A DNA stretch of 64,000 nucleotides from Pseudomonadales bacterium (lineage in GTDB: Bacteria > Pseudomonadota > Gammaproteobacteria > Pseudomonadales > JBFGWM01): NCBI GenBank assembly GCA_041682035.1, contig JBFKKR010000002.1, positions 216 to 64,215 on the forward strand, read 5' to 3'. Shown here piece by piece: positions 2,499 through 63,957 of the stretch. The notes under the pieces are model-generated. The model was not told the origin of the DNA and did no database searches. It saw only the letters and a list, made by a program, of their open reading frames with translations. The position numbers and the translations under genes were made by a program. Every line of letters starts with the position of its first letter. Within the stretch, counting starts at the first letter, position 1.

Positions 2499-3611
2499 AT
2501 GAAGAAGTTGTCCAGACGCAATCTGCTTCGCGCCGGGGGTATCTCGCTACTCGGACTCGCCGCCCTCTCCACCCAGCAGATCAGGGTCCGCCAGCAGGTG
2601 CAGGACGAGTTCCGCATCGGGTTCATCTACGTCGGCGCGCGTGACGACTTCGGCTACAACCAGGCCCATGCGATGGCCGCCGCCCGTCTCGCGCGGGAAC
2701 CGAACGTGCGCGTCTTCGAGCAGGACCGGGTGCCTGAAACTGAAGAGGTACTGGCGGTCATGCAGGGCATGATCGAAAACCACGGCGTGCAGGTCATGTT
2801 CCCGACCTCCTACGGCTACTTCGACCCCTACGTGCTGGAAGCGGCGCGCAGCAATCCGGAGGTGCACTTCGTCCACGCGGGCGGACTGTACCTCCCCGGT
2901 CATCCGCAGAACGTCAGTTCCTACTTCGGTTACATCGACGAAGGGATGTTCCTCGCCGGCATCGCCGCCGGCCACGTGACCCAGACCGGCCGACTGGGCT
3001 TCGTCGCCGCCATGAACATCCCCCACGTGCACCGCAACGTCAACGCGTTCCTGCTCGGCGCACGCACGGTGCAGCCGTTCGCCACGCTCGAGGTCCGTTT
3101 CACCGGCGGATGGTTCCTCCCCGAGGCGGAACGGGCCACCTGCAATGCATTGATCGATGCCGGCGCAGACGTCATGACCTGTCACGTGGACAGCCCGCGC
3201 GCGGTGATCGAGACCAGCGGCGGCCGCGGCGTCGCCTGCGTGGGGTACCACTCGGATCTCGCATCGCTGGCGCCGGAACATGTACTGACCAGTGTCCAGT
3301 GGGACTGGTGGCCACTGGTATCGGACTACCTGCGGAAACTGCGGGCGGGTGAGGAGATTCCCCACATGCAACGCCTCGGCATGCGGGAGGGTATTGTGGT
3401 GCTCGCGCCATTCGGACCGCGGGTGCCCCAGGCCGCGCGGCTGCAGATCGCCGGGATGCACCGGAAGTTCCTCGCCGGGCAGCACAGCGTCTACACCGGA
3501 CCGATCTACGACCAGTCCGGTGAGGTGCTGATCCCGACCGGCGTGCAGCGCGAACGGGACGACCCTTGGCTGGAAACCATGGACTGGTTCGTGAAGGGCG
3601 TGCAGGCTTGA
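2499..3611 (+). CDS. BMP-family periplasmic substrate-binding protein, paralogue 2
   Basis: Tat signal LSRRNLLRAGG. It carries the same motif set as 1337-2491 (clearly a tandem paralogue by eye) and starts 7 nt after it. Confidence 0.8.
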   Translation: MKKLSRRNLLRAGGISLLGLAALSTQQIRVRQQVQDEFRIGFIYVGARDDFGYNQAHAMAAARLAREPNVRVFEQDRVPETEEVLAVMQGMIENHGVQVMFPTSYGYFDPYVLEAARSNPEVHFVHAGGLYLPGHPQNVSSYFGYIDEGMFLAGIAAGHVTQTGRLGFVAAMNIPHVHRNVNAFLLGARTVQPFATLEVRFTGGWFLPEAERATCNALIDAGADVMTCHVDSPRAVIETSGGRGVACVGYHSDLASLAPEHVLTSVQWDWWPLVSDYLRKLRAGEEIPHMQRLGMREGIVVLAPFGPRVPQAARLQIAGMHRKFLAGQHSVYTGPIYDQSGEVLIPTGVQRERDDPWLETMDWFVKGVQA

Positions 3612-6145
3612 GCCGCAGCGCAATCCTCGGTCTTCTCCTGACGACACTCATCGGGGTGGCCGGTTCATTCGGCCTCTACCGCATGGCGATGCAGAGCATC
3701 GAGCGCGACGAGCGGGCGGTGTTCATGCGGCTGGCCACCGCGCGCAGCGGCGCCATCGCGCAGCGACTTATTTCGACCCAGGAGAGCGCCATGAACATGC
3801 ATGGCCTCTACAAGGCGTCGGATCACGTCGACCCGCACGAGTTCGAGTTGTTCGGCGATCTGCAGCACCGCAGGCACACGTCCGTCCACGCCCTGCAGTG
3901 GGTGCCGCACGTACCCGGCGGCGAGCGGGCCGCCTACGAGGAGAAAGTCTCGGCCATGCTGCGGACGCCCTTCCGCATCACGGAGATGAACCAGAATGGC
4001 CTGCTGGTGCCGGCCGCTGAACGTCCCGATTACCTGCCGGTGCAGTACGTGGTCCCCTTGAAGGTGAACAAGACGCTCCTGGGGTTCGACCATGGCAGTG
4101 AAGCGGTCGTCCGCAAGACCCTGGAACTGGCGCGGTCCAGCGGGCTCACCCAGGCCACCACGGCGGTCCGGCTGCCACAGGAGATCGACCCGGCGCCTGG
4201 CGTCCTGGTGGTGGAACCGGTGTACCGGGGCAGTCGCAGCACCAGTATCGACCGGCAGAAGAACCTGACGGGATTCGTCATCGCGGTGGTGCGCATCAAG
4301 ACCGTGCTGCAAAACGCCGTGCACAGCCTGAACCAGGCCGATGCACAGATTCACACCGCGCTGTACGACGTCACCAGCGGCGCGGAGCGGTTCCTGTACA
4401 GCTACGGATCCAGTCCGGCCCGGCCCGTTTCCCCGGAATGGTTGCAGGAGACGATCGTGAACTTCGCTGGTCGCACCTGGGCCGTACGCAACCAGCCCAA
4501 CCTGCCCCTGGTGACAGGCATGCAGTGGCAGCCCCTGAGCATGCTGCTGGGCATGCTGACGCTGACGACGGTCGTCTCCATATTCATCTTCACGTTGATG
4601 TACCGGGAACAGCTGGTGTCCATCGCGGTCGCCGAGCGCACCCGCGAACTGCGGCGCAGCGAAGCCCGCATCCGCGGCCTCCTCGACACCGCCACCAACG
4701 CGATTTTCATCCTCGATGACGGCGGGCGCATCGAGAGCAGCAACCAGGCCGCGAACCGCCTGTTCGGCGACGAGGACGATGGCGGGCTGCCTGCGCATTT
4801 CGCCGAACTGTTTCCGGGTGTGCCCGAGAAGCAGCTCCTGCAGGCCTCCAACCAGGAATTCCAGGTCGTCCTGAGAGACCAGGAAAGGCGCTACCTGCAG
4901 GTCTCGGTCAGCAGCACCGGCGCCGAGGGCCAGCAGTCGCGCATCGCCGTCCTGAACGACGTCACGCTCAGGCGCCGCATGGAGAACAACGAGCGCGAGC
5001 AGAAGCTGCTGCTGCAGAACATCATGCGGTCTATGGATGAAGGTCTGCTGGTGTCGCGCGCCGGCCATCCGCTGATGGTCAACCCCAAGACCGAGTCGCT
5101 GTTTCCGAACGCATCCGCGCTGGTCCGGTCCAGGCCGGTGCCCAACCAGGTCGGCTGGCTGGACCCGGAAACGCTGGAGCCGATCCTCGAGGAGAGCCTG
5201 CCGCTGCACCGCATCCTCGTCGGCGAGGAAGTGCAGAACGAGGAGTATTTCATCCAGAACGAGTACCAGCCCGAGGGCGTCCATGTCGAAGTGACCGGCA
5301 ATGCGCTGCTTGACGCGGGCATGCGGCGCATCGGCGCGATGGTGGTGCTGCGTGACATCTCCCACCGCAAGGCATACGAGCGCAGGCTGCAGGAGACCGC
5401 CGCCCAGCTGGCACTCAGCAACCAGGAACTGGAGAGCTTTGCCCGCGCGGCCTCGCACGACCTGCAGGAACCCCTGCGCAAGGTGCAGCGCTTCGGCTCC
5501 CTGCTGCGCATGTCGCGCGCCGACCAACTGGACGAACAGGGGCTGGATTTCCTCGACCGCATGATCAATGCCGCCGACCGCATGTCCGCGCTGATCGACG
5601 GCCTGCTGACGCTGGCGCGGGTCACCTCCAAGGCCGCGCCGTTCTCCTCGACGCGCCTGAATACGGTGCTCAGCGAGGTACTGGAGGACCTGCAGATCCG
5701 GATCGAGGATACCGGCGCCGAGATCGACGCCGGTTCGCTGCCGACCATCGACGCGGACCCGGTGCAGATGCGCCAGCTGTTCCAGAACCTGATCAGCAAC
5801 GGCCTGAAATACCAGCCCGAGGGCAACCGGCCCAAGATCACCATACGCGCGGAACAGCTGATCCGGGCCCGACCGGTCGAGCACCGCTGCTGGAAGCTGA
5901 CCTTCCAGGACAACGGCATCGGCTTCGCACAGGAAGACGCGGGCCGGATTTTCGGCGTGTTCTCGCGCCTGCACGGCCGCGGCGAATACGAGGGCTCCGG
6001 CGTCGGCCTGTCCATCTGCCGCAAGATCGCCGAGCGACATCATGGCGAGATCAGCGCCACCTCGGTGCCGGGCGAGGGCGCCACCTTCACGGTCATCCTG
6101 CCGGAAAATCAGCCCGGCGCCGCCCGCACCCCGGAACCGGCATGA
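3566..6145 (+). CDS. Sensor histidine kinase: TM, periplasmic CHASE domain, TM, 2x PAS, HisKA, HATPase_c. No receiver domain.
   Basis: CHASE-like segment (LQWVPHV..ERAAYE..LPVQYVVPL). H-box FARAASHDLQEPLRKV. G-box GSGVGLSICRKIAERHHGEI. An alternative start at TTG 3608 would overlap the upstream stop as TTGA. Confidence 0.85.
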   Translation: MAGNHGLVREGRAGLSRSAILGLLLTTLIGVAGSFGLYRMAMQSIERDERAVFMRLATARSGAIAQRLISTQESAMNMHGLYKASDHVDPHEFELFGDLQHRRHTSVHALQWVPHVPGGERAAYEEKVSAMLRTPFRITEMNQNGLLVPAAERPDYLPVQYVVPLKVNKTLLGFDHGSEAVVRKTLELARSSGLTQATTAVRLPQEIDPAPGVLVVEPVYRGSRSTSIDRQKNLTGFVIAVVRIKTVLQNAVHSLNQADAQIHTALYDVTSGAERFLYSYGSSPARPVSPEWLQETIVNFAGRTWAVRNQPNLPLVTGMQWQPLSMLLGMLTLTTVVSIFIFTLMYREQLVSIAVAERTRELRRSEARIRGLLDTATNAIFILDDGGRIESSNQAANRLFGDEDDGGLPAHFAELFPGVPEKQLLQASNQEFQVVLRDQERRYLQVSVSSTGAEGQQSRIAVLNDVTLRRRMENNEREQKLLLQNIMRSMDEGLLVSRAGHPLMVNPKTESLFPNASALVRSRPVPNQVGWLDPETLEPILEESLPLHRILVGEEVQNEEYFIQNEYQPEGVHVEVTGNALLDAGMRRIGAMVVLRDISHRKAYERRLQETAAQLALSNQELESFARAASHDLQEPLRKVQRFGSLLRMSRADQLDEQGLDFLDRMINAADRMSALIDGLLTLARVTSKAAPFSSTRLNTVLSEVLEDLQIRIEDTGAEIDAGSLPTIDADPVQMRQLFQNLISNGLKYQPEGNRPKITIRAEQLIRARPVEHRCWKLTFQDNGIGFAQEDAGRIFGVFSRLHGRGEYEGSGVGLSICRKIAERHHGEISATSVPGEGATFTVILPENQPGAARTPEPA

Positions 6146-7951: not shown

Positions 7952-9058
7952 ATGCCAAAGGGCACGAAATCCACGACCAAGAAGACCGGCGCCAGCCGCC
8001 AGGCCACCACCGCCAAGAGCAGCCGGGCCGCCCGGCCAGCCAGAAGCGCCGCGGCTCGCAAGCCCGCCGCAAAGAAGACCGCCACCTCGGCCCGGACGAC
8101 AACGAAAAAACCCGCCCCGCGCAAGAGCGCGGCAGCATCCGTCAAAGAAGCAGTAGCGAAGGCAGTGAAGAAAGTATCCAGCAAGCGGACCGCAACCACC
8201 CCGGCCAAGAAGACCTCCACGGCACGCAAGCCGACGACGGCCGGCAAGACCGCCGCCAGCAAGACCCGGCGCACGACGACGGCCAAGGCTGCCACGCGCA
8301 AGCCGGCCACGAAGGCCAAGGCCGCAGCCGCCGGCAAGGCGAAGACCACGGCACGGGCGGCCACCAAGACCAAGGCGACCGCGAAAAAGACCCCGGTCAG
8401 GAAAACGGGCGCTGCCAGCAGCAAGCCGGCGGCCAAGGCGGCTGCGCCGGCGAAGCCGTCCCGCGCCAGGGCGGCCGCCGCGAAGACGACAACGCGCAAG
8501 CCCTCCGGCACCGCGCGCAAGCCCGCCGCGACCAAGGCCCCGGCGAAGGCTGCCGCCACGCAGAAGAAGCCGGCGGCGCGGAAACCGGCCGGCAGCGCGC
8601 GCCCGAACCCACGGCGCGCCTCGGCGAGCATCCTGTCGGGCCCGATGATGTCGGAAATCCAGCCCTACAAGTCGAAGTCGAACGAAGAGTACATGTCGCG
8701 CGAGCAGCTCGAGCACTTCTCGCAGATTCTCCTGAAGTGGAAGCAGGAACTGATGCAGGAAGTGGATCGCACCATGATCCACATGAAGGAAGAGGCGGCG
8801 AACTTTGCCGACCCGAGCGACCGCGCCACCCAGGAGGAGGAGTTCAGCCTGGAGCTGCGCACCCGCGACCGGGAGCGGAAGCTGATCCGGAAGATCGATG
8901 ACACGCTCGATCTGATCGACCGGGAAGACTACGGTTATTGCGAATCCTGCGGCGTCGAGATCGGCGTCCGTCGCCTCGAGGCACGCCCCACCGCCACGCT
9001 CTGCATCGACTGCAAGACCCTGGCCGAGGTGAAAGAGCGGCAGGTCGGCGGCCGCTAG
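7952..9058 (+). CDS. dksA: RNA polymerase-binding factor DksA with a ~228-aa Lys/Ala/Thr-rich N-terminal extension
   Basis: The C-terminal ~140 aa are near-identical in pattern to E. coli DksA (FADPSDRATQEEEFSLELR, CESCGVEIGVRRLEARPTATLCIDC). ATG 7952 is preceded by GGGAGG. One frame runs uninterrupted through the basic low-complexity region. Confidence 0.8.
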   Translation: MPKGTKSTTKKTGASRQATTAKSSRAARPARSAAARKPAAKKTATSARTTTKKPAPRKSAAASVKEAVAKAVKKVSSKRTATTPAKKTSTARKPTTAGKTAASKTRRTTTAKAATRKPATKAKAAAAGKAKTTARAATKTKATAKKTPVRKTGAASSKPAAKAAAPAKPSRARAAAAKTTTRKPSGTARKPAATKAPAKAAATQKKPAARKPAGSARPNPRRASASILSGPMMSEIQPYKSKSNEEYMSREQLEHFSQILLKWKQELMQEVDRTMIHMKEEAANFADPSDRATQEEEFSLELRTRDRERKLIRKIDDTLDLIDREDYGYCESCGVEIGVRRLEARPTATLCIDCKTLAEVKERQVGGR

Positions 9059-9083: not shown

Positions 9084-10010
9084 ATGGGTCCGGCCCGGCG
9101 CACGGCGGGCGCCGCCATCGTCGGCCGGTTCGCTCCGTCCCCCACGGGCCCCCTGCACTTCGGTTCCCTGTTCGCCGCGCTGGCGAGCTACCTGGATGTC
9201 GCTTCGCGCGGCGGGCGCTGGCTGGTCCGCATCGAGGACATCGACCCCCCGCGCGAGGTAACCGGCGCCCGCCAGGCCATCCTGGAGGCGCTTGCCGCGC
9301 ACGGGCTGAACCCGGTCGAGGATGTCATCTACCAGTCGCACCAGGCGGCACTGCACGATGCGTCGCTGCAGGCACTGGGCCGGGACGGCCACCTGTTCTA
9401 CTGCACCTGCACCCGCAAGGCCCTGGCGGCGGTCCCGGGCCCCTACCCGGGCACCTGCCGCAACCGGCGCGAGCCACCCCGGCGCTCGCACGCGGTGCGG
9501 TTCCGGGTCGCGGAGGGAGCAGCCATCCGCTTCGAAGACGGCATCCTCGGTCCGCAGGTTTTCGAACCGGGGGATCTGGGCGATTTCATCGTGCGCCGGC
9601 GCGACGGGCTGGTGGCCTACCACCTGGCGGTGGTCGCCGACGATGCGGCACAGGGCATCTCCACGATCCTGCGCGGCGCCGACCTGCTGGATTCCACGCC
9701 GCTGCATATCTGCCTGCAACACGCACTGGGACACCCGGTACCGGAGTACCTGCACGTTCCGGTCCTGACCTGTGGCGGCGCCAAGCTGAGCAAGCAGACC
9801 GGCGCTCCCGCCCTCGATGCCACGCGCGCGGCCGAGAACCTGTGCCGGGCGCTCGCCCTGCTTGGCCAGCCGGTGCCCGGCAGCGGGCCGGGCCGCGAGG
9901 TGACGACGCTGCTGAAGACCGCGTGCGCCAACTGGCGGCGCGAGCTGGTCCCCAGGCAGGCGGAGATCGAGCTGGGGCCGGAATTCGGCGATGTCACGGG
10001 CGGTGCATGA
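9084..10010 (+). CDS. gluQ: tRNA glutamyl-Q(34) synthetase (GluQRS)
   Basis: GRFAPSPTGPLHFGSL, RIEDID and a KLSKQ-type motif. It sits immediately downstream of dksA, as in E. coli and Pseudomonas. Confidence 0.85.
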   Translation: MGPARRTAGAAIVGRFAPSPTGPLHFGSLFAALASYLDVASRGGRWLVRIEDIDPPREVTGARQAILEALAAHGLNPVEDVIYQSHQAALHDASLQALGRDGHLFYCTCTRKALAAVPGPYPGTCRNRREPPRRSHAVRFRVAEGAAIRFEDGILGPQVFEPGDLGDFIVRRRDGLVAYHLAVVADDAAQGISTILRGADLLDSTPLHICLQHALGHPVPEYLHVPVLTCGGAKLSKQTGAPALDATRAAENLCRALALLGQPVPGSGPGREVTTLLKTACANWRRELVPRQAEIELGPEFGDVTGGA

Positions 10011-10155
10011 ACTGGCCCTGCCCGGCCCGTTACGGTAGATTGAGGCAAGGAACGCGCAAGGATGCCCGCCCGCCGATGACCGATGTCTTCCTTTCTCCGG
10101 CAGCTGTCGGACGAGACCGGCGCCACCGGAACACCCCCACCGGAATCCAGCCCGC

Positions 10156-11190
10156 ATGAAGCGGCAGGCGCCTGCCCGACCGGATTCCACGCCGACGACC
10201 GTACCGTCCTCTTTCCACGGCATGATCGGCGCGTCGCCGCCCATGCAGGCCGTATTCCGTTATATCGAGCGCGCTGCGCCCACCGACGCCACCGTGCTGA
10301 TCAGCGGTGAAACCGGCACCGGCAAGGAACTGGCGGCGCGTGCGCTGCACGCCCTGAGCAATCGTGACAGCGGCGAATTCATCGCGGTGAACTGCGCGGC
10401 CATCCCGGAAACCCTGGTGGAGGCCGAACTGTTCGGTAACGAGAAGGGCGCGTTCACCGGCGCCGTCAGCAAGCGGCGCGGCCTGGTGGAGGCCGCTGAC
10501 CGCGGCACGCTGTTCCTTGACGAGGTGGGCGAACTGCCACTGGAGGCGCAGGCCCGGCTCCTGCGGGTATTGCAGGAAGGCGAGATCCGGCGCGTCGGCG
10601 CGACGCGCACCAACACGGTCAACGTCCGTATCATCGCCGCAACCCACCGCAACCTGTCCGCCCTGGTGCAGGAGGGTCGTTTCCGCGAGGATCTCTACTT
10701 CCGGCTGAACGTGCTGTCGATCCGCATGCCGCCCCTGCGCGAACGCGCCGAGGACATCCCGGCCCTCGCCGAAAGCCTGCTGCGTCAGCACGCGGCGGGC
10801 CTGCAACGGCCGGTCCGTGGCTTCGAGAGCGAGGCGCTGCGGACGCTGTGCCGGGCGCCGTGGCGCGGCAACGTGCGGGAACTGGACAACGTCATCCACC
10901 GCGCCTGCATCCTCAGCGACAGCCCGGTCATCGCGCAGGGTGATCTGCAGTTCGACGGCGAAGGGGAAGCTGGCGCCGATGACGGCCACGATGTCGCCGA
11001 CTGGCCCCGGCAACTGAGCCTGGAGCAGTACGTGGAGCACTTCCTGCTCGCCAACCAGCACCACATGACCGAGACCGAGATTGCCCAGAACCTGGGCATC
11101 AGCCGCAAGTGCCTGTGGGAGAAGCGTCAGAAACTGGGCATTCCGCGCCGCCAGGCCAGCGAGCGGCGGGGCGAGACGGAACGCGCGTGA
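10156..11190 (+). CDS. Sigma-54-dependent transcriptional activator (bEBP) with an AAA+ domain and Fis-type HTH only. No receiver or sensory domain.
   Basis: Walker A GETGTGKE, GAFTGA loop, Walker B FLDEVG, C-terminal HTH IAQNLGISRKCLWEKRQKLGI. An in-frame TAG at 10036-10038 limits any N-terminal extension to 39 codons. Confidence 0.9.
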   Translation: MKRQAPARPDSTPTTVPSSFHGMIGASPPMQAVFRYIERAAPTDATVLISGETGTGKELAARALHALSNRDSGEFIAVNCAAIPETLVEAELFGNEKGAFTGAVSKRRGLVEAADRGTLFLDEVGELPLEAQARLLRVLQEGEIRRVGATRTNTVNVRIIAATHRNLSALVQEGRFREDLYFRLNVLSIRMPPLRERAEDIPALAESLLRQHAAGLQRPVRGFESEALRTLCRAPWRGNVRELDNVIHRACILSDSPVIAQGDLQFDGEGEAGADDGHDVADWPRQLSLEQYVEHFLLANQHHMTETEIAQNLGISRKCLWEKRQKLGIPRRQASERRGETERA

Positions 11191-11192
11191 AC

Positions 11193-11239
11193 TGTTACCA
11201 ATCGAAACACTTCGCGATTATTTTGACCATCCGGTAACA
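11193..11239. promoter_or_regulatory. Candidate upstream activator sites: TGTTAC (11193-11198) and the inverted GTAACA (11234-11239)
   Basis: The two are exact inverted hexamers about 105-145 bp upstream of the -24/-12 element. They match the CbrB half-site hexamers as I recall them, but the spacing is 35 bp rather than about 12 bp. Confidence 0.4.
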
Positions 11240-11313
11240 CTTTGCGCTTGATTATTGCAGTAATTTCTTCGATAAATATCGTATACCTTTGTATTTATTG
11301 ATTATTTTTTATT

Positions 11314-11329
11314 TGGCACGCAACCTGCA
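11314..11329 (+). promoter_or_regulatory. Sigma-54 (-24/-12) promoter
   Basis: TGGCACGCAACCTGCA compared with the consensus TGGCACG-N4-TTGCW. The GG to GC spacing is exact and there is one mismatch. A visibly AT-rich stretch of about 70 bp precedes it. Confidence 0.7.
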
Positions 11330-11339
11330 CAGCATATCA

Positions 11340-11495
11340 CGCCAAGAGGACACACGCTGCGGCGAAGGCTTTCGGCCAGGGTCACGAGGACCAGAGTCTG
11401 CGGGTGACGAGGCATGGACGCCTCACGGAATAACAACAACAATCCCTTGCTTCAACCTGTGAGGGGAAGCTCTTCGGAGCTTCCTCCTCGTTTTT
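11340..11495 (+). ncRNA. Candidate sigma-54-dependent sRNA, CrcZ-like (Hfq-binding A-rich tract)
   Basis: The predicted start is about 12 nt after the -12 GC. It contains AAUAACAACAACAAU at 11429-11443 and ends at an intrinsic terminator. No credible ORF is present. Its position between the bEBP gene and pcnB mirrors crcZ. Confidence 0.5.
11463..11495 (+). terminator. Intrinsic terminator
   Basis: A 10-bp stem GGGGAAGCUC/GAGCUUCCUC with a UUCG loop, followed by CUCG and U5. Confidence 0.7.
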
Positions 11496-11803
11496 CCGGG
11501 ATGATCCGTTTTCCTGAGTGGCAAAGTCGTGGTAAAAAGACGCCGCGATTCGCCGGCCCATGCAGCAGACCCGCCCACCCCCTCTGCATGGCTGGTCGCG
11601 CCCGGTTTCCCCGGAAACTGTGAGTGCGCCGGCGAAAGGGGCAAGGTCCGCCGATCCGGACCGGCCCCGCAAGCCAGACGGCCCGCCCGATCCAGCCTCG
11701 CCGCCCCCTGGCGCGAAGCGTCGCTGATCGTCGACCCGGAGCGTGCCCGGACCGGTGGCAACTGGAAGGTACCTGGGCTCGCCCGACTGCGAGAGGAGTT
11801 CGC

Positions 11804-13168
11804 GTGAAGGAAATCACGGAATCGGAGCATGGCATCGCGCCTGCACAGATCAATCCGAATGCGCTGGAGATCGTCGAGAGGCTGAACGAGGCGGGCCACG
11901 AGGCCTACCTCGTCGGCGGCTGCCTGCGGGACCTCCTGCTGGGCATCCCGCCCAAGGACTTCGACGTCGCCACGTCGGCGCACCCGGAGCAGGTGCGCTC
12001 GCTGTTCCGGAACTCGCGCCTGATCGGCCGCCGGTTCCGGCTCGCGCACATCCGCCACGGCAGGGAGACCACCGAGGTCGCCACGTTCCGGGCCGGCGGC
12101 GAGCACTGGGACAGCGCCGACAGCGAGGCCGATGCCGAACTGCACGTGGAAACCGGCCGCATCCTGCGGGACAACGTGTACGGCACGCTGGAAACGGACG
12201 CCGCCCGCCGCGACTTCACCATCAACGCGCTGTACCTGCGGCCGGCCGACTGGACCGTGCTGGATTTCAGCGACGGGATCGGCGACCTGCGCAAGAAAAA
12301 GATCCGCGTGCTGGGCACCCCGGCGGAACGCTTCCGCGAAGACCCCGTGCGCATGCTGCGGGCTGCGCGGCTGCAGGCCAAGCTGGGCCTGAAGATCGGC
12401 AGGGAGGAAGAGGAGGCCATCCGCAAGCTGGGCAAGCTGCTGGTGCACGTGCCGCCCGCCCGCCTGTTCGATGAGTACACCAAGCTGTTCATGCACGGCC
12501 ACGCCGTACGGAGCATGGAACTGCTCGACGAGTACGGCCTGACCGAGTACCTGTTCCCGACCCTGGCGGAATACTACCCGGAACAGCCGGAAGTGGCGGC
12601 GCTGGTCCGCCAGGCGCTGGTCAACACCGATGAACGGGTGGCCAACGACCAGCGCATCACGCCCGCATTCCTCATCGCCGTGTTCCTGTGGCCGGAGTTC
12701 CTGGAGCAGCATCGCGCCCAGCTCGACGCCGGCGATTCGCCACTGGAAGCCTGCAACCGCGCGGCGCACGCCGTCATCATGGAGCAGTGCCAGTCGATCA
12801 GCATCCCGAAGCGCTTCAGCATGGTCGTCAAGGACATCTGGGACCTGCAGTTCCGGCTGCCGAACAACGGCAACCGCAAGCGTGCCGTGCAGCTCCTGGA
12901 CCACCGCCGCTTCCGTGCGGCCTACGACTTCCTGCTGTTGCGCGAGATGGCCGGGGAAAACCTCGAAGGCCTGGGCGAATGGTGGACGCACTTCCAGGAG
13001 GAAGATCACGGCCCGCGACCGGAACGGACGGACGAGGACGAAAACGAGGACGAGGAATCCGAAGAGCGCGCGCCGCGCCGGCCGCGCGGTGAGCAGCGGA
13101 GCGAGCAGCCCGCCGGACCGCGCCGCAGACGCCGCCGGCGCCGGCGCCGGCGTCCTGCTCCGGAGTGA
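11804..13168 (+). CDS. pcnB: Poly(A) polymerase I
   Basis: LVGGCLRDLLLG..PKDFDVAT and RRDFTINALY. GTG 11804 has GAGAGGAG 5 nt upstream. The upstream part of the 514-aa ORF is Arg/Pro-rich junk. The C-terminus is an Arg run. Confidence 0.9.
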   Translation: MKEITESEHGIAPAQINPNALEIVERLNEAGHEAYLVGGCLRDLLLGIPPKDFDVATSAHPEQVRSLFRNSRLIGRRFRLAHIRHGRETTEVATFRAGGEHWDSADSEADAELHVETGRILRDNVYGTLETDAARRDFTINALYLRPADWTVLDFSDGIGDLRKKKIRVLGTPAERFREDPVRMLRAARLQAKLGLKIGREEEEAIRKLGKLLVHVPPARLFDEYTKLFMHGHAVRSMELLDEYGLTEYLFPTLAEYYPEQPEVAALVRQALVNTDERVANDQRITPAFLIAVFLWPEFLEQHRAQLDAGDSPLEACNRAAHAVIMEQCQSISIPKRFSMVVKDIWDLQFRLPNNGNRKRAVQLLDHRRFRAAYDFLLLREMAGENLEGLGEWWTHFQEEDHGPRPERTDEDENEDEESEERAPRRPRGEQRSEQPAGPRRRRRRRRRRRPAPE

Positions 13169-29576: not shown

Positions 29577-29653
<77 letters not shown>

Positions 29654-30139: not shown

Positions 30140-30225
30140 TGGTGCCGAAGGCCGGACTTGAACCGGCACGGCTTGCGCCACTGCCCCCTCAAGACAGCGT
30201 GTCTACCAATTCCACCACTTCGGCA
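30140..30225 (-). tRNA. tRNA-Leu (GAG)
   Basis: The reverse complement GCCGAAGTGGTGGAATTGGTAGACAC...CTTGAGGGGGCAG...GGTTCAAGTCCGGCCTTCGGCACCA shows a long variable arm. It sits downstream of secG, like E. coli leuU. Confidence 0.9.
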
Positions 30226-60336: not shown

Positions 60337-60816
60337 ATGAACAAAAAGCAGAAAAGCAATACCAGCGCGACCATCGCGCAGAACCGCAAGGCGCGGCACG
60401 ACTACCACCTGCGCGAACGCCTGGAAGCCGGCCTGGTGCTGGAGGGCTGGGAGGTGAAAAGCCTGCGGGCGGGCAAGGTGCAGCTGGTGGACAGTTACGT
60501 GCTGCTGAAAGGCGGCGAAGCCTTCCTGCTGGGCGCGCTCATCACGCCACTGACCAGCGCGAGCACGCACCGTGAAACCGACCCGACCCGCACCCGCAAA
60601 CTGCTGCTGCACCAGGAGGAACTCGCCCGGATCCACAACGCCACGCAGGCCAAGGGCATGGCCTGTATCCCGGTTTCCCTCTACTGGAAGAAACAGCGCG
60701 TGAAATGCGAGATCGCGCTGGCCGAGGGCAAGAAGGACTTCGACAAGCGCGAGGACATGAAGAAGAAAGACTGGGACCGCCAGCGCGCCCGCATCATGCG
60801 GAGTCAGAATCGCTGA
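60337..60816 (+). CDS. smpB: SsrA-binding protein SmpB
   Basis: [28 protein letters not shown] and RTRKLLLHQ. Confidence 0.93.
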
Positions 60817-63600: not shown

Positions 63601-63957
63601 GGGGGCGATTTGGCTTCGACGTGGGTCGCGAACCCCAAGGTGCATGCCGAGATGGCAGCGAATCTCGTAAATCCAAAGCTGTAAACCAATAGTTGCCAAC
63701 GACGACAACTACGCACTAGCGGCCTAAACCCCGCTAGCAGTTCTGAAGAGGGGCCTGTACTTCTGAAAGAACTGTCATATTCACAGGATCGCGTGAGGGG
63801 GTGTTCGTGACCCGAGCGTTAAAACCCAAACTGCGGACTCGCCCTACACACCCTGCCCGTTGGGTCGTGATGGGTTAAATCAATAGACGGACCTAAGCAT
63901 GTAGAGCCGAGGGCAGAGGGCTGACGGACGCGGGTTCAACTCCCGCCGCCTCCACCA
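63601..63957 (+). ncRNA. ssrA: tmRNA (SsrA), one-piece
   Basis: The 5' GGGGGCG pairs with the 3' CGCCTCC-ACCA, including a G3:U pair. The tag ORF GCC AAC GAC GAC AAC TAC GCA CTA GCG GCC TAA (63695-63727) encodes ANDDNYALAA. The T-arm is GGTTCAACTCC. Confidence 0.93.

Follow-up and report, generated by a model that had tools for sequence, protein, structure and literature searches.

A 613-bp spacer separates the gene of a sigma-54 activator (stop codon at 11190) from pcnB (GTG start codon at 11804) in a Pseudomonadales bacterium, and it raises the question of whether this spacer contains a gene of its own and how such a gene would relate to crcZ, which encodes the small RNA (sRNA) CrcZ in Pseudomonas. 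The spacer is part of a stretch of 64,000 nt, referred to here as the window (Pseudomonadales bacterium JBFGWM01, assembly GCA_041682035.1, contig JBFKKR010000002.1, positions 216–64,215, forward strand). An earlier note on this DNA had proposed a minimal, single-motif CrcZ analogue at the syntenic position in a different lineage. One A-rich tract, the crcZ position and the crcZ promoter geometry were found, in agreement with this proposal, and on balance we favour, with moderate confidence, the reading that the spacer is an independent sRNA gene and the evolutionary counterpart of crcZ, which would act through a CbrB-type activator without a receiver domain and, by extension from CrcZ, through titration of Hfq. 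The difference in lineage was borne out as well: the DnaK protein of the window is 81–84% identical to proteins of Ketobacter, Zooshikella, Spartinivicinus, Hahella and metagenome-assembled genomes (MAGs) labeled “Pseudomonadales bacterium,” and PcnB shares only 49–55% identity with Pseudomonas proteins. Judged by these proteins, the host is an uncultured, rarely sampled member of the Pseudomonadales sensu lato outside the Pseudomonadaceae.

Spacers of the window type were identified in 11 loci that represent five distinct alleles: the window, L081, L094, L082 (shared by L097–L099, whose spacers are identical to it) and L083 (shared by L084, L100, and L101, with the spacers of L100 and L101 identical to it). 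The four alleles outside the window come from related MAGs, and the assemblies that hold the sRNA family are GCA_041637915.1, GCA_041565315.1, GCA_041624155.1, and GCA_041588555.1 in addition to the assembly of the window itself. Contigs coding for CbrB proteins served as reference crcZ loci (L087 from Pseudomonas, L086 from Marinobacter, and L096, a MAG locus).

The gene order in the window is dksA, gluQ (9084–10010), the activator gene (10156–11190), the spacer, pcnB, folK, a deoxynucleoside kinase gene, and panB. The order from gluQ to panB is shared by the window and the 10 related loci, and all 11 spacers are flanked by a CbrB-type gene and pcnB. The reference loci of Pseudomonas and Marinobacter are organized as gluQ-cbrX-cbrA-cbrB-CrcZ spacer-pcnB-folK, and the third reference locus (L096) as cbrX-cbrA-cbrB-CrcZ-pcnB with a gene of the phosphatidyltransferase family, instead of gluQ, as the upstream neighbor. 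The statement of the earlier note that CrcZ sits between cbrB and pcnB was confirmed by Rfam matches at this position in L087 (306 bits) and L096 (142 bits), and the spacer of the window occupies the same place, with a CbrB orthologue upstream and pcnB downstream as in all three reference loci. The CbrA/CbrB two-component module is incomplete in the window, where gluQ lies directly upstream of the activator gene (gap of 145 bp), neither cbrA nor cbrX is adjacent, and no receiver domain with a phospho-acceptor Asp is encoded. Because the gene order matches that of Rfam-confirmed CrcZ loci, the window is best described, from its organization, as a crcZ locus from which cbrX and cbrA were deleted and in which cbrB was truncated. 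Two cbrA-cbrB loci without an sRNA after cbrB were also observed: in L085 (5375–6481) a gene for a 255-aa protein lies between cbrB and pcnB, and in L095 (4649–5478) pcnB is not adjacent.

Among 5.8 billion database proteins, the named relatives closest to the activator are CbrB proteins from Azotobacter, Pseudomonas, Marinobacter, and Kistimonas (55–59% identity over 91–98% of the query), which agrees with the identification in the earlier note of a CbrB-type activator upstream and pcnB downstream of the spacer. In the alignment the GAFTGA, Walker A and Walker B motifs are intact, the first ∼120 residues that form the receiver domain are missing, and the helix-turn-helix (HTH) motif MTETEIAQNLGISRKCLWEKRQKLGIPR hardly differs from its counterpart in Pseudomonas and Azotobacter CbrB. 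On this alignment the activator is a CbrB orthologue. A Pfam search found no Response_reg match in the protein, and the 145 bp upstream of its gene contain no remnants of a receiver. Two homologous proteins (P0002 and P0003, 80–81% identity to the window activator) are likewise truncated and miss the receiver, and two others (P0004, 70%, and P0005, 60%) retain the receiver domain and its Asp. Overall, the activators of the five alleles are only 58–81% identical. The CbrB proteins of L082 and L083 carry the receiver and the Asp, yet cbrA is not adjacent in these loci either. A scan of reference genomes with the activator protein yielded, among the matches listed, sigma-54 AAA+ proteins of a generic kind (47–59% identity at best) and no orthologues.

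Since the activator lacks a receiver and cbrA is absent from the locus, the sRNA cannot be under the control of the canonical CbrA/CbrB phosphorelay, and the organization suggests that the CbrB-sRNA pair is able to work without the CbrA signal. A kinase-independent CbrB without receiver is plausible because unphosphorylated CbrB keeps ∼40% of its activity in vitro (PMC8871633). A sensor kinase with CHASE-PAS-HisKA-HATPase architecture is encoded four genes upstream in the window (3566–6145, plus strand) with conserved synteny in L081; without a transporter-like domain it does not resemble CbrA, and a functional link to the activator is unlikely because the activator has no receiver domain.

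The enhancer and the promoter closely match those of crcZ (table 1). The published CbrB site consists of three subsites, TGTTAC-N12-14-GTAACA-N15-19-GTAACA (PMC8871633), and the assignment of TGTTAC and GTAACA in the spacer as CbrB half-sites by the earlier note is supported by a crcZ-type enhancer geometry. With the GG of the −24 element as the reference point, both the family and the crcZ promoters of Pseudomonas, L096, and Marinobacter have the first subsite (F1; TGTTAC or CGTTAC) at −122 to −125 and the distal subsite (R2; GTAACA or GTAACG) at −79 to −83. The 35 bp that the earlier note gave as half-site spacing is correct, but the contrast it drew with a spacing of 12 bp in Pseudomonas is not: 35 bp is the F1–R2 distance, which falls inside the published range of 33–39 bp (PMC8871633), and it is the middle subsite R1 that is missing in the window, where a conserved GAAACA is present at −111 instead. 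The RpoN −24/−12 promoter with TGTTAC/GTAACA at defined spacing is in place, with R1 absent. The −12 variant CTGC is common to the window, L087, L096, and all but one of the family alleles, and nhmmer profiles of the promoter part match reciprocally between the family and crcZ (E values of 5e-6 to 5e-4 in a small search space). The arrangement TGTTAC-N30-40-GTAACA occurs once in the 64 kb (0 expected); the sigma-54 consensus with at most one mismatch occurs four times in the window (2.1 expected) and is not significant alone.

In windows of 100 nt the tract between enhancer and promoter has a GC content of 0.33–0.34 compared with 0.62–0.78 in the flanking genes. IHF assists the activation of crcZ by CbrB (PMC8871633, PMC6296734), and by analogy with the crcZ literature, the sole source for a role of IHF here, the AT-rich tract is likely a region of DNA bending or IHF binding. 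A separate observation concerns the Pseudomonas locus L087, where an Rfam match to “Pseudomonas sRNA P36” (RF01679, 57 bits, 5446–5505) coincides with the three CbrB subsites upstream of crcZ (TGTTAC at 5451, GTAACA at 5471, and GTAACG at 5492); it may be that the P36 model captures the DNA of the crcZ enhancer and not an sRNA in its own right.

Table 1. Features of the activator-pcnB region in the window, and enhancer subsites of the four compared promoters (in bp from the GG of the −24 element).
Feature	Position	Strand	Remarks
CbrB-type sigma-54 enhancer-binding protein without receiver, 344 aa	10156..11190	+	AAA+ domain and C-terminal HTH; Pfam Sigma54_activat 2.9e-72
Enhancer half-site TGTTAC	11193..11198	+	Equivalent of CbrB subsite F1; 122 bp upstream of GG of −24 element
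GAAACA, putative degenerate extra subsite	11204..11209	+	One mismatch from GTAACA; at −111; kept in 4/5 alleles
Enhancer half-site GTAACA	11234..11239	+	Equivalent of CbrB subsite R2; 81 bp upstream of GG
AT-rich tract between enhancer and promoter	11240..11313	+	GC 0.33–0.34; position and AT-richness conserved
Sigma-54 promoter TGGCAC-N5-CTGCA = TGGCACGCAACCTGCA	11314..11329	+	GG 11315–16, GC 11327–28; conserved in all alleles
Predicted sRNA, ∼155–156 nt	11340..11495	+	Start placed by promoter geometry; end at terminator U tract
Hairpin GAGGC-AUGGAC-GCCUC	11409..11424	+	Loop of form CANGGANG; in 5/5 alleles
A-rich tract AAU-AAC-AAC-AAC-AAU = AATAACAACAACAAT	11429..11443	+	Five ARN triplets; candidate Hfq distal-face site
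Invariant 12-nt element UCCCUUGCUUCA	11443..11454	+	Directly 3′ of A tract; identical in 5/5 alleles
Intrinsic terminator	∼11461..11495	+	12-bp GC-rich stem, UUCG loop, U5
TGGTAAAAA, extended −10-like element	11530..11538	+	Outside sRNA; kept in 4/5 alleles
pcnB, poly(A) polymerase I	11804..13168	+	NCBIfam TIGR01942, 478 bits; downstream synteny anchor
Window promoter			F1 −122; middle R1 absent; distal R2 −81
Pseudomonas L087 promoter			F1 −124; R1 −104; R2 −83
L096 promoter			F1 −125; R1 −104; R2 −82
Marinobacter L086 promoter			F1 −125; no R1 value; R2 −81

All five elements that the earlier note had listed in the spacer (the half-site pair, the AT-rich stretch, the sigma-54 promoter, the A tract and the terminator) were present at the positions it had given, and the alignment of the spacer across relatives that it had suggested revealed that the promoter, the A tract, and the terminator are kept in all five alleles. 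The full conserved set comprises, in order, the enhancer half-sites, the AT-rich tract, the −24/−12 promoter, a GGCA-NGGA-NGCC hairpin, the A tract, UCCCUUGCUUCA, and the terminator, and the 3′ two-thirds of the RNA are conserved in the four alleles outside the window. No other perfect (AAN)5 tract exists on either strand of the 64 kb, with 0.11 expected even if one mismatch is allowed. The terminator is strong in every allele (a 12-bp GC-rich stem followed by 5–8 U) and is the only helix that displays compensatory changes (three pairs). A covariance model built for the family (R1) gives the five alleles scores of 110–179 bits and does not exceed 11 bits anywhere in 552 kb of control loci with unrelated sigma-54 activators; it finds no second copy of the sRNA in the window. 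A pattern scan of a metagenome collection yielded no further family members: the pattern GGCANGGANGCC-N12-40-TCCCTTGCTTCA occurred at six loci, all of them chance matches in coding-like sequence without A tract or terminator, and the family model had zero matches in them.

It is highly improbable that there is no RNA gene at all and that the spacer carries either a chance assembly of motifs or a gene for a small protein. A chance assembly is suggested by the frequency of single elements, as the sigma-54 match and the terminator (one found and 1.0 expected in the region, not significant alone) each occur at chance level. However, neither the A tract nor the enhancer pair has a second occurrence in the window, and the ordered set of elements exceeds chance because the four other alleles conserve it. 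As for a small protein, the poly-Asn reading frame that the earlier note had described is the sole open reading frame (ORF) across the A tract, and its ATG start codon, located in the loop of the hairpin, is present in the window and in L094. This part of the description stands, but the frame is not conserved across the five alleles: the ATG is ACG or AAG in three of them, and a 1-nt deletion in L082 and a 2-nt insertion in L083 shift the frame within the best-conserved stretch.

The favored reading, an sRNA gene descended from crcZ, leads to a candidate mechanism. The CbrB-type activator would bind TGTTAC and GTAACA, loop across the AT-rich tract, and open the sigma-54 promoter with ATP, and transcription would run from near 11340 to the terminator near 11495 and produce an RNA of ∼155 nt. 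The A tract is predicted to be unpaired in all alleles (probability of being unpaired 0.79–0.95 compared with a mean of ∼0.43 for the molecule), and it shares the core AAU-AAC-AAC with the 6xARN Hfq/Crc site of amiE, in which six ARN triplets fill the distal face of Hfq (PMC6422490). The single unpaired tract of five triplets could bind to an Hfq hexamer's distal face and the U-tailed terminator to its proximal face. If abundant, the RNA would compete with A-rich sites near the ribosome-binding sites of mRNAs for Hfq, with or without Crc, and this competition would relieve Hfq-dependent translational repression as it does for CrcZ. The activator would be controlled through its own expression, through the availability of sigma-54, or through another partner, and not through the CbrA kinase, because it has no phospho-acceptor domain. 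By this comparison with CrcZ, titration of Hfq is the most likely function of the sRNA. Other near-ARN tracts in the window were considered as Hfq/Crc targets, but their locations, within dnaK and where smpB begins, make them uninformative.

Several results weigh against this reading. The search with the Rfam CrcZ and CrcY models that the earlier note had suggested gave no match at the gathering threshold (95 bits for CrcZ) and none on 11100–11900 at E ≤ 10, and there was no CrcZ match in L081–L084 or L094 either. The body of the RNA has no detectable similarity to CrcZ (nhmmer E > 0.1 in both directions), and the family model applied to the CrcZ 3′ end (last A motif and terminator) reaches a marginal 15 bits over a noise level of ∼11. 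Across the five alleles no informative covariation was found for the GGA hairpin or for a long-range helix that would enclose the A tract. The simple IHF consensus has no site at one mismatch or fewer in the AT-rich tract, and hfq is not encoded in the 64-kb window. A single tract of five triplets has far less titrating capacity per molecule than the five or six tracts of CrcZ, and a pure distal-face sponge needs neither the invariant UCCCUUGCUUCA nor the CANGGANG hairpin. As positive controls for the Rfam search, the CrcZ model identified L087 and L096 at the scores given above and L086 at 50 bits (49.7; below gathering but with E = 3e-10); matches at permissive thresholds were noise (Plastid-psbA-2, c-di-GMP-I, and RAGATH-32 at E values of 4.6–9.5). 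The claim of homology consequently rests on the position, the activator, and the promoter rather than on the RNA body, and in these terms the sRNA is a positional and promoter-level orthologue of CrcZ that is not a member of the Rfam CrcZ family.

The invariant UCCCUUGCUUCA opens the main rival explanation, in which the RNA derives from CrcZ but is a class-II-like, Hfq-dependent base-pairing sRNA, docked on Hfq through its ARN tract and U-tailed terminator and with the pyrimidine-rich UCCCUUGCUUCA as its seed, for example for ribosome-binding sites of the AAGGGA type. In class II sRNAs such as ChiX and MgrR the seed is located between the ARN tract and the terminator, which is where UCCCUUGCUUCA lies. 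The element is identical in all five alleles, even in the distant L083 whose flanking sequences have diverged, and a single Hfq site fits a base-pairing RNA better than a sponge. On the other hand, the sequence available contained no complementary site that is conserved, and matches to the anti-seed in the window number four compared with 3.8 expected. One of these lies in the leader of the activator gene at 10041, but feedback pairing at this site was rejected, as the relatives do not keep the match and such matches are about as frequent as expected by chance. The element is also only ∼35–43% unpaired in ensemble folds and is able to pair with the region of the GGA hairpin. We regard a base-pairing RNA as unlikely, although it is an alternative of some weight; UCCCUUGCUUCA may serve in pairing with the GGA hairpin region, as a seed, or in contacting the rim of Hfq.

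The hairpin upstream of the A tract suggests a different partner. CsrA and RsmE prefer A(N)GGA in a loop, a preference that the CANGGANG loop fits, and the sRNA might bind a protein of the CsrA/RsmA type, alone or together with Hfq, which would link two global post-transcriptional regulators. The GGCA-NGGA-NGCC form is found in all five alleles and is absent from bona fide CrcZ, including the CrcZ RNAs of L086, L087, and L096; a second GGA follows 10 nt downstream in four alleles, and a similar motif is present in the activator leader of the three loci without receiver. Yet only one GGA hairpin is conserved, compared with the multiple loop GGA motifs of Rsm/Csr sponges, and the other GGA triplets are not conserved, the second being lost in L083. 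The background frequency of CANGGANG is ∼0.4 per kb per strand in this GC-rich DNA, the hairpin 12-mer occurs twice in the window (0.48 expected), csrA is not encoded in the window, and the hairpin may be purely structural. Its local pair probability is 0.54–0.96 in four alleles, and its bases have a competing long-range partner in UCCCUUGCUUCA. By eye, the long-range helix has one compensatory change, from GGAU:AUCC in L081, L094, and L082 to GGAG:CUCC in L083, and the window has a mismatch. Taken together, binding of a CsrA-type protein is improbable.

A further observation was made in the activator leader (10036–10066), where a −10-like TAGATT (kept in the window, L081, L094, and L082) is followed by two GGA motifs that are kept only in the three loci without receiver; the second of these, CAAGGATG, has the same CANGGANG form as the sRNA hairpin.

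Features of both alternatives could also be combined. A descendant of crcZ might have been remodeled to carry an Hfq site together with a UCCCUUGCUUCA seed, a CANGGANG site for CsrA/RsmA, or both, and be driven by a CbrB that is free of its kinase. This combination is unlikely; it would represent a natural case of a protein-sponge RNA that evolved into a base-pairing or dual-protein regulator.

The sequence downstream of the terminator bears on whether the RNA is free-standing. The sigma-54 promoter could instead drive pcnB, with the RNA acting in cis as a leader or attenuator and read-through being governed by its terminator. The RNA and pcnB share a strand, with the pcnB start 308 nt downstream, a simple scan found no other terminator or strong sigma-70 promoter, and there is some conservation past the terminator. 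However, the terminator is strong in all alleles, the distance to pcnB ranges from ∼100 to 310 nt with a poorly conserved distal part, and the homologous position in Pseudomonas is occupied by a free-standing sRNA. In addition, AAGTCGTGGTAAAAAG (11525–11540), which contains TGGTAAAAA, is kept in four of the five alleles, and ATGCTAGAAT is found at the equivalent place in Pseudomonas and L096. By its sequence and location TGGTAAAAA is probably part of pcnB's own promoter, and the presence of such a promoter-like element past the terminator, here as well as in true crcZ loci, disfavors a leader or attenuator role, which we regard as very improbable. The presumed pcnB leader also contains an inverted repeat, CATGCAG...CTGCATG (11559–11590), that is present in L081 and less clear in L082.

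If the spacer holds the counterpart of crcZ, the loci can be placed in a series along which the module appears, from the loci compared, to have been reduced stepwise. In the first state cbrA and the receiver are present and the RNA has four to six motifs. In the second (L083) cbrA is not adjacent, the receiver is present, and there are two motifs; the third (L082) differs by having a single motif; and in the fourth (the window, L081, and L094) cbrA is not adjacent, the receiver is absent, and one motif is found. The ARN tracts number six in Pseudomonas, four to five in L096 and Marinobacter L086, two in L083, and one in each of the other alleles. The RNA of L083 is ∼260 nt long, and the first of its two A tracts, AACAACAATAACAAG, matches the first motif in Pseudomonas CrcZ letter for letter. 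A series in which cbrA ceases to be adjacent, the receiver is then lost, and the number of motifs falls alongside illustrates how rewiring of a global carbon-control circuit can proceed.

The CbrAB/CrcZ system was called unique to the Pseudomonadaceae in a review (PMC8871633), and no literature report of CrcZ in six non-Pseudomonas genera was found among the top-ranked matches. The Marinobacter locus L086 (5393–6229) displays the full gluQ-cbrX-cbrA-cbrB-sRNA-pcnB order, CbrB-type enhancer repeats, a sigma-54 promoter, and four to five A-rich tracts, and its score of 49.7 bits against a threshold of 95 indicates that the Cbr/CrcZ module exists outside the Pseudomonadaceae and is missed at the Rfam threshold. 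The module is found in full form in Marinobacter and in a stripped-down form in an uncultured Pseudomonadales lineage. Rfam and the searchable literature contain no description of the window sRNA, and similar reduced homologues have probably been missed in annotation because Rfam is blind to it. What is newly recognized is a reduced regulator of the CrcZ type; the kind of regulator itself is already known. A natural CrcZ with a single motif offers a test of how many Hfq sites an antagonist needs and which parts of CrcZ are dispensable. If Hfq titration is its function, relief of amiE::lacZ repression would depend on AAUAACAACAACAAU, and AANAANAA could be enriched at the ribosome-binding sites of catabolic genes.

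Other observations in the window concern the surrounding genes. The DksA proteins of the lineage (window ∼8006–9058, plus strand; L081 1812–2876; L100 371–1408) carry an N-terminal extension of ∼200–230 aa that precedes normal DksA_N and zinc-finger domains, canonical DksA being ∼150 aa long. The extension is kept in three divergent relatives and is rich in Lys, Ala, Thr, and Pro with KPAA-like repeats, reminiscent of the tails of histone H1 or AlgP. A tmRNA gene is located at 63601–63957 (plus strand, Rfam 216 bits) with the smpB start near 60337, and Rfam identified two tRNA genes on the minus strand (29580–29653 and 30143–30224).

Compared with known systems, the activator resembles PspF and HrpR/HrpS in consisting of an AAA+ domain and HTH only, which leaves it without the possibility of phosphorylation control. 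Unlike PspF and HrpS, it is by sequence a truncated CbrB (TIGR02974 257 bits compared with a cut-off of 444), and no gene for a PspA- or HrpV-like partner adjoins it. Among sRNAs, those of class II (ChiX, MgrR, and CyaR) are likewise small, have a single-stranded ARN tract and a U-tailed terminator, both of which are predicted for the window RNA, and compete strongly for Hfq; in contrast to it, they base-pair with defined targets, use sigma-70 promoters, and have no sequence relationship to it. The CrcZ paralogues CrcY and CrcX of P. putida, P. fluorescens, and P. syringae depend on CbrB and sigma-54 and possess A-rich motifs along with an enhancer of the same type (PMC6296734), but they lie elsewhere in the genome and have several motifs each in a CrcZ-like sequence. 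CrcZ itself (RF01675), known from Pseudomonas and Azotobacter, depends on CbrB and RpoN, sequesters Hfq/Crc and thereby relieves catabolite repression; it is an RNA of ∼400 nt with five or six A-rich motifs, whereas the window RNA has one motif in ∼155 nt and none at the 5′ end, matches the Rfam model neither in sequence nor in structure, and possesses the CANGGANG hairpin and the invariant UCCCUUGCUUCA that CrcZ lacks; its enhancer has no R1, and its activator has neither a receiver nor an adjacent cbrA or cbrX. The two share the site between cbrB and pcnB, an orthologous activator with a near-identical DNA-binding helix, a sigma-54 promoter with TGTTAC/GTAACA subsites at matching distances and with an AT-rich spacer, an A-rich motif of AAN repeats built on the same five-triplet unit, and an intrinsic terminator whose loop is of the UNCG type and which follows the last motif by ∼20 nt.

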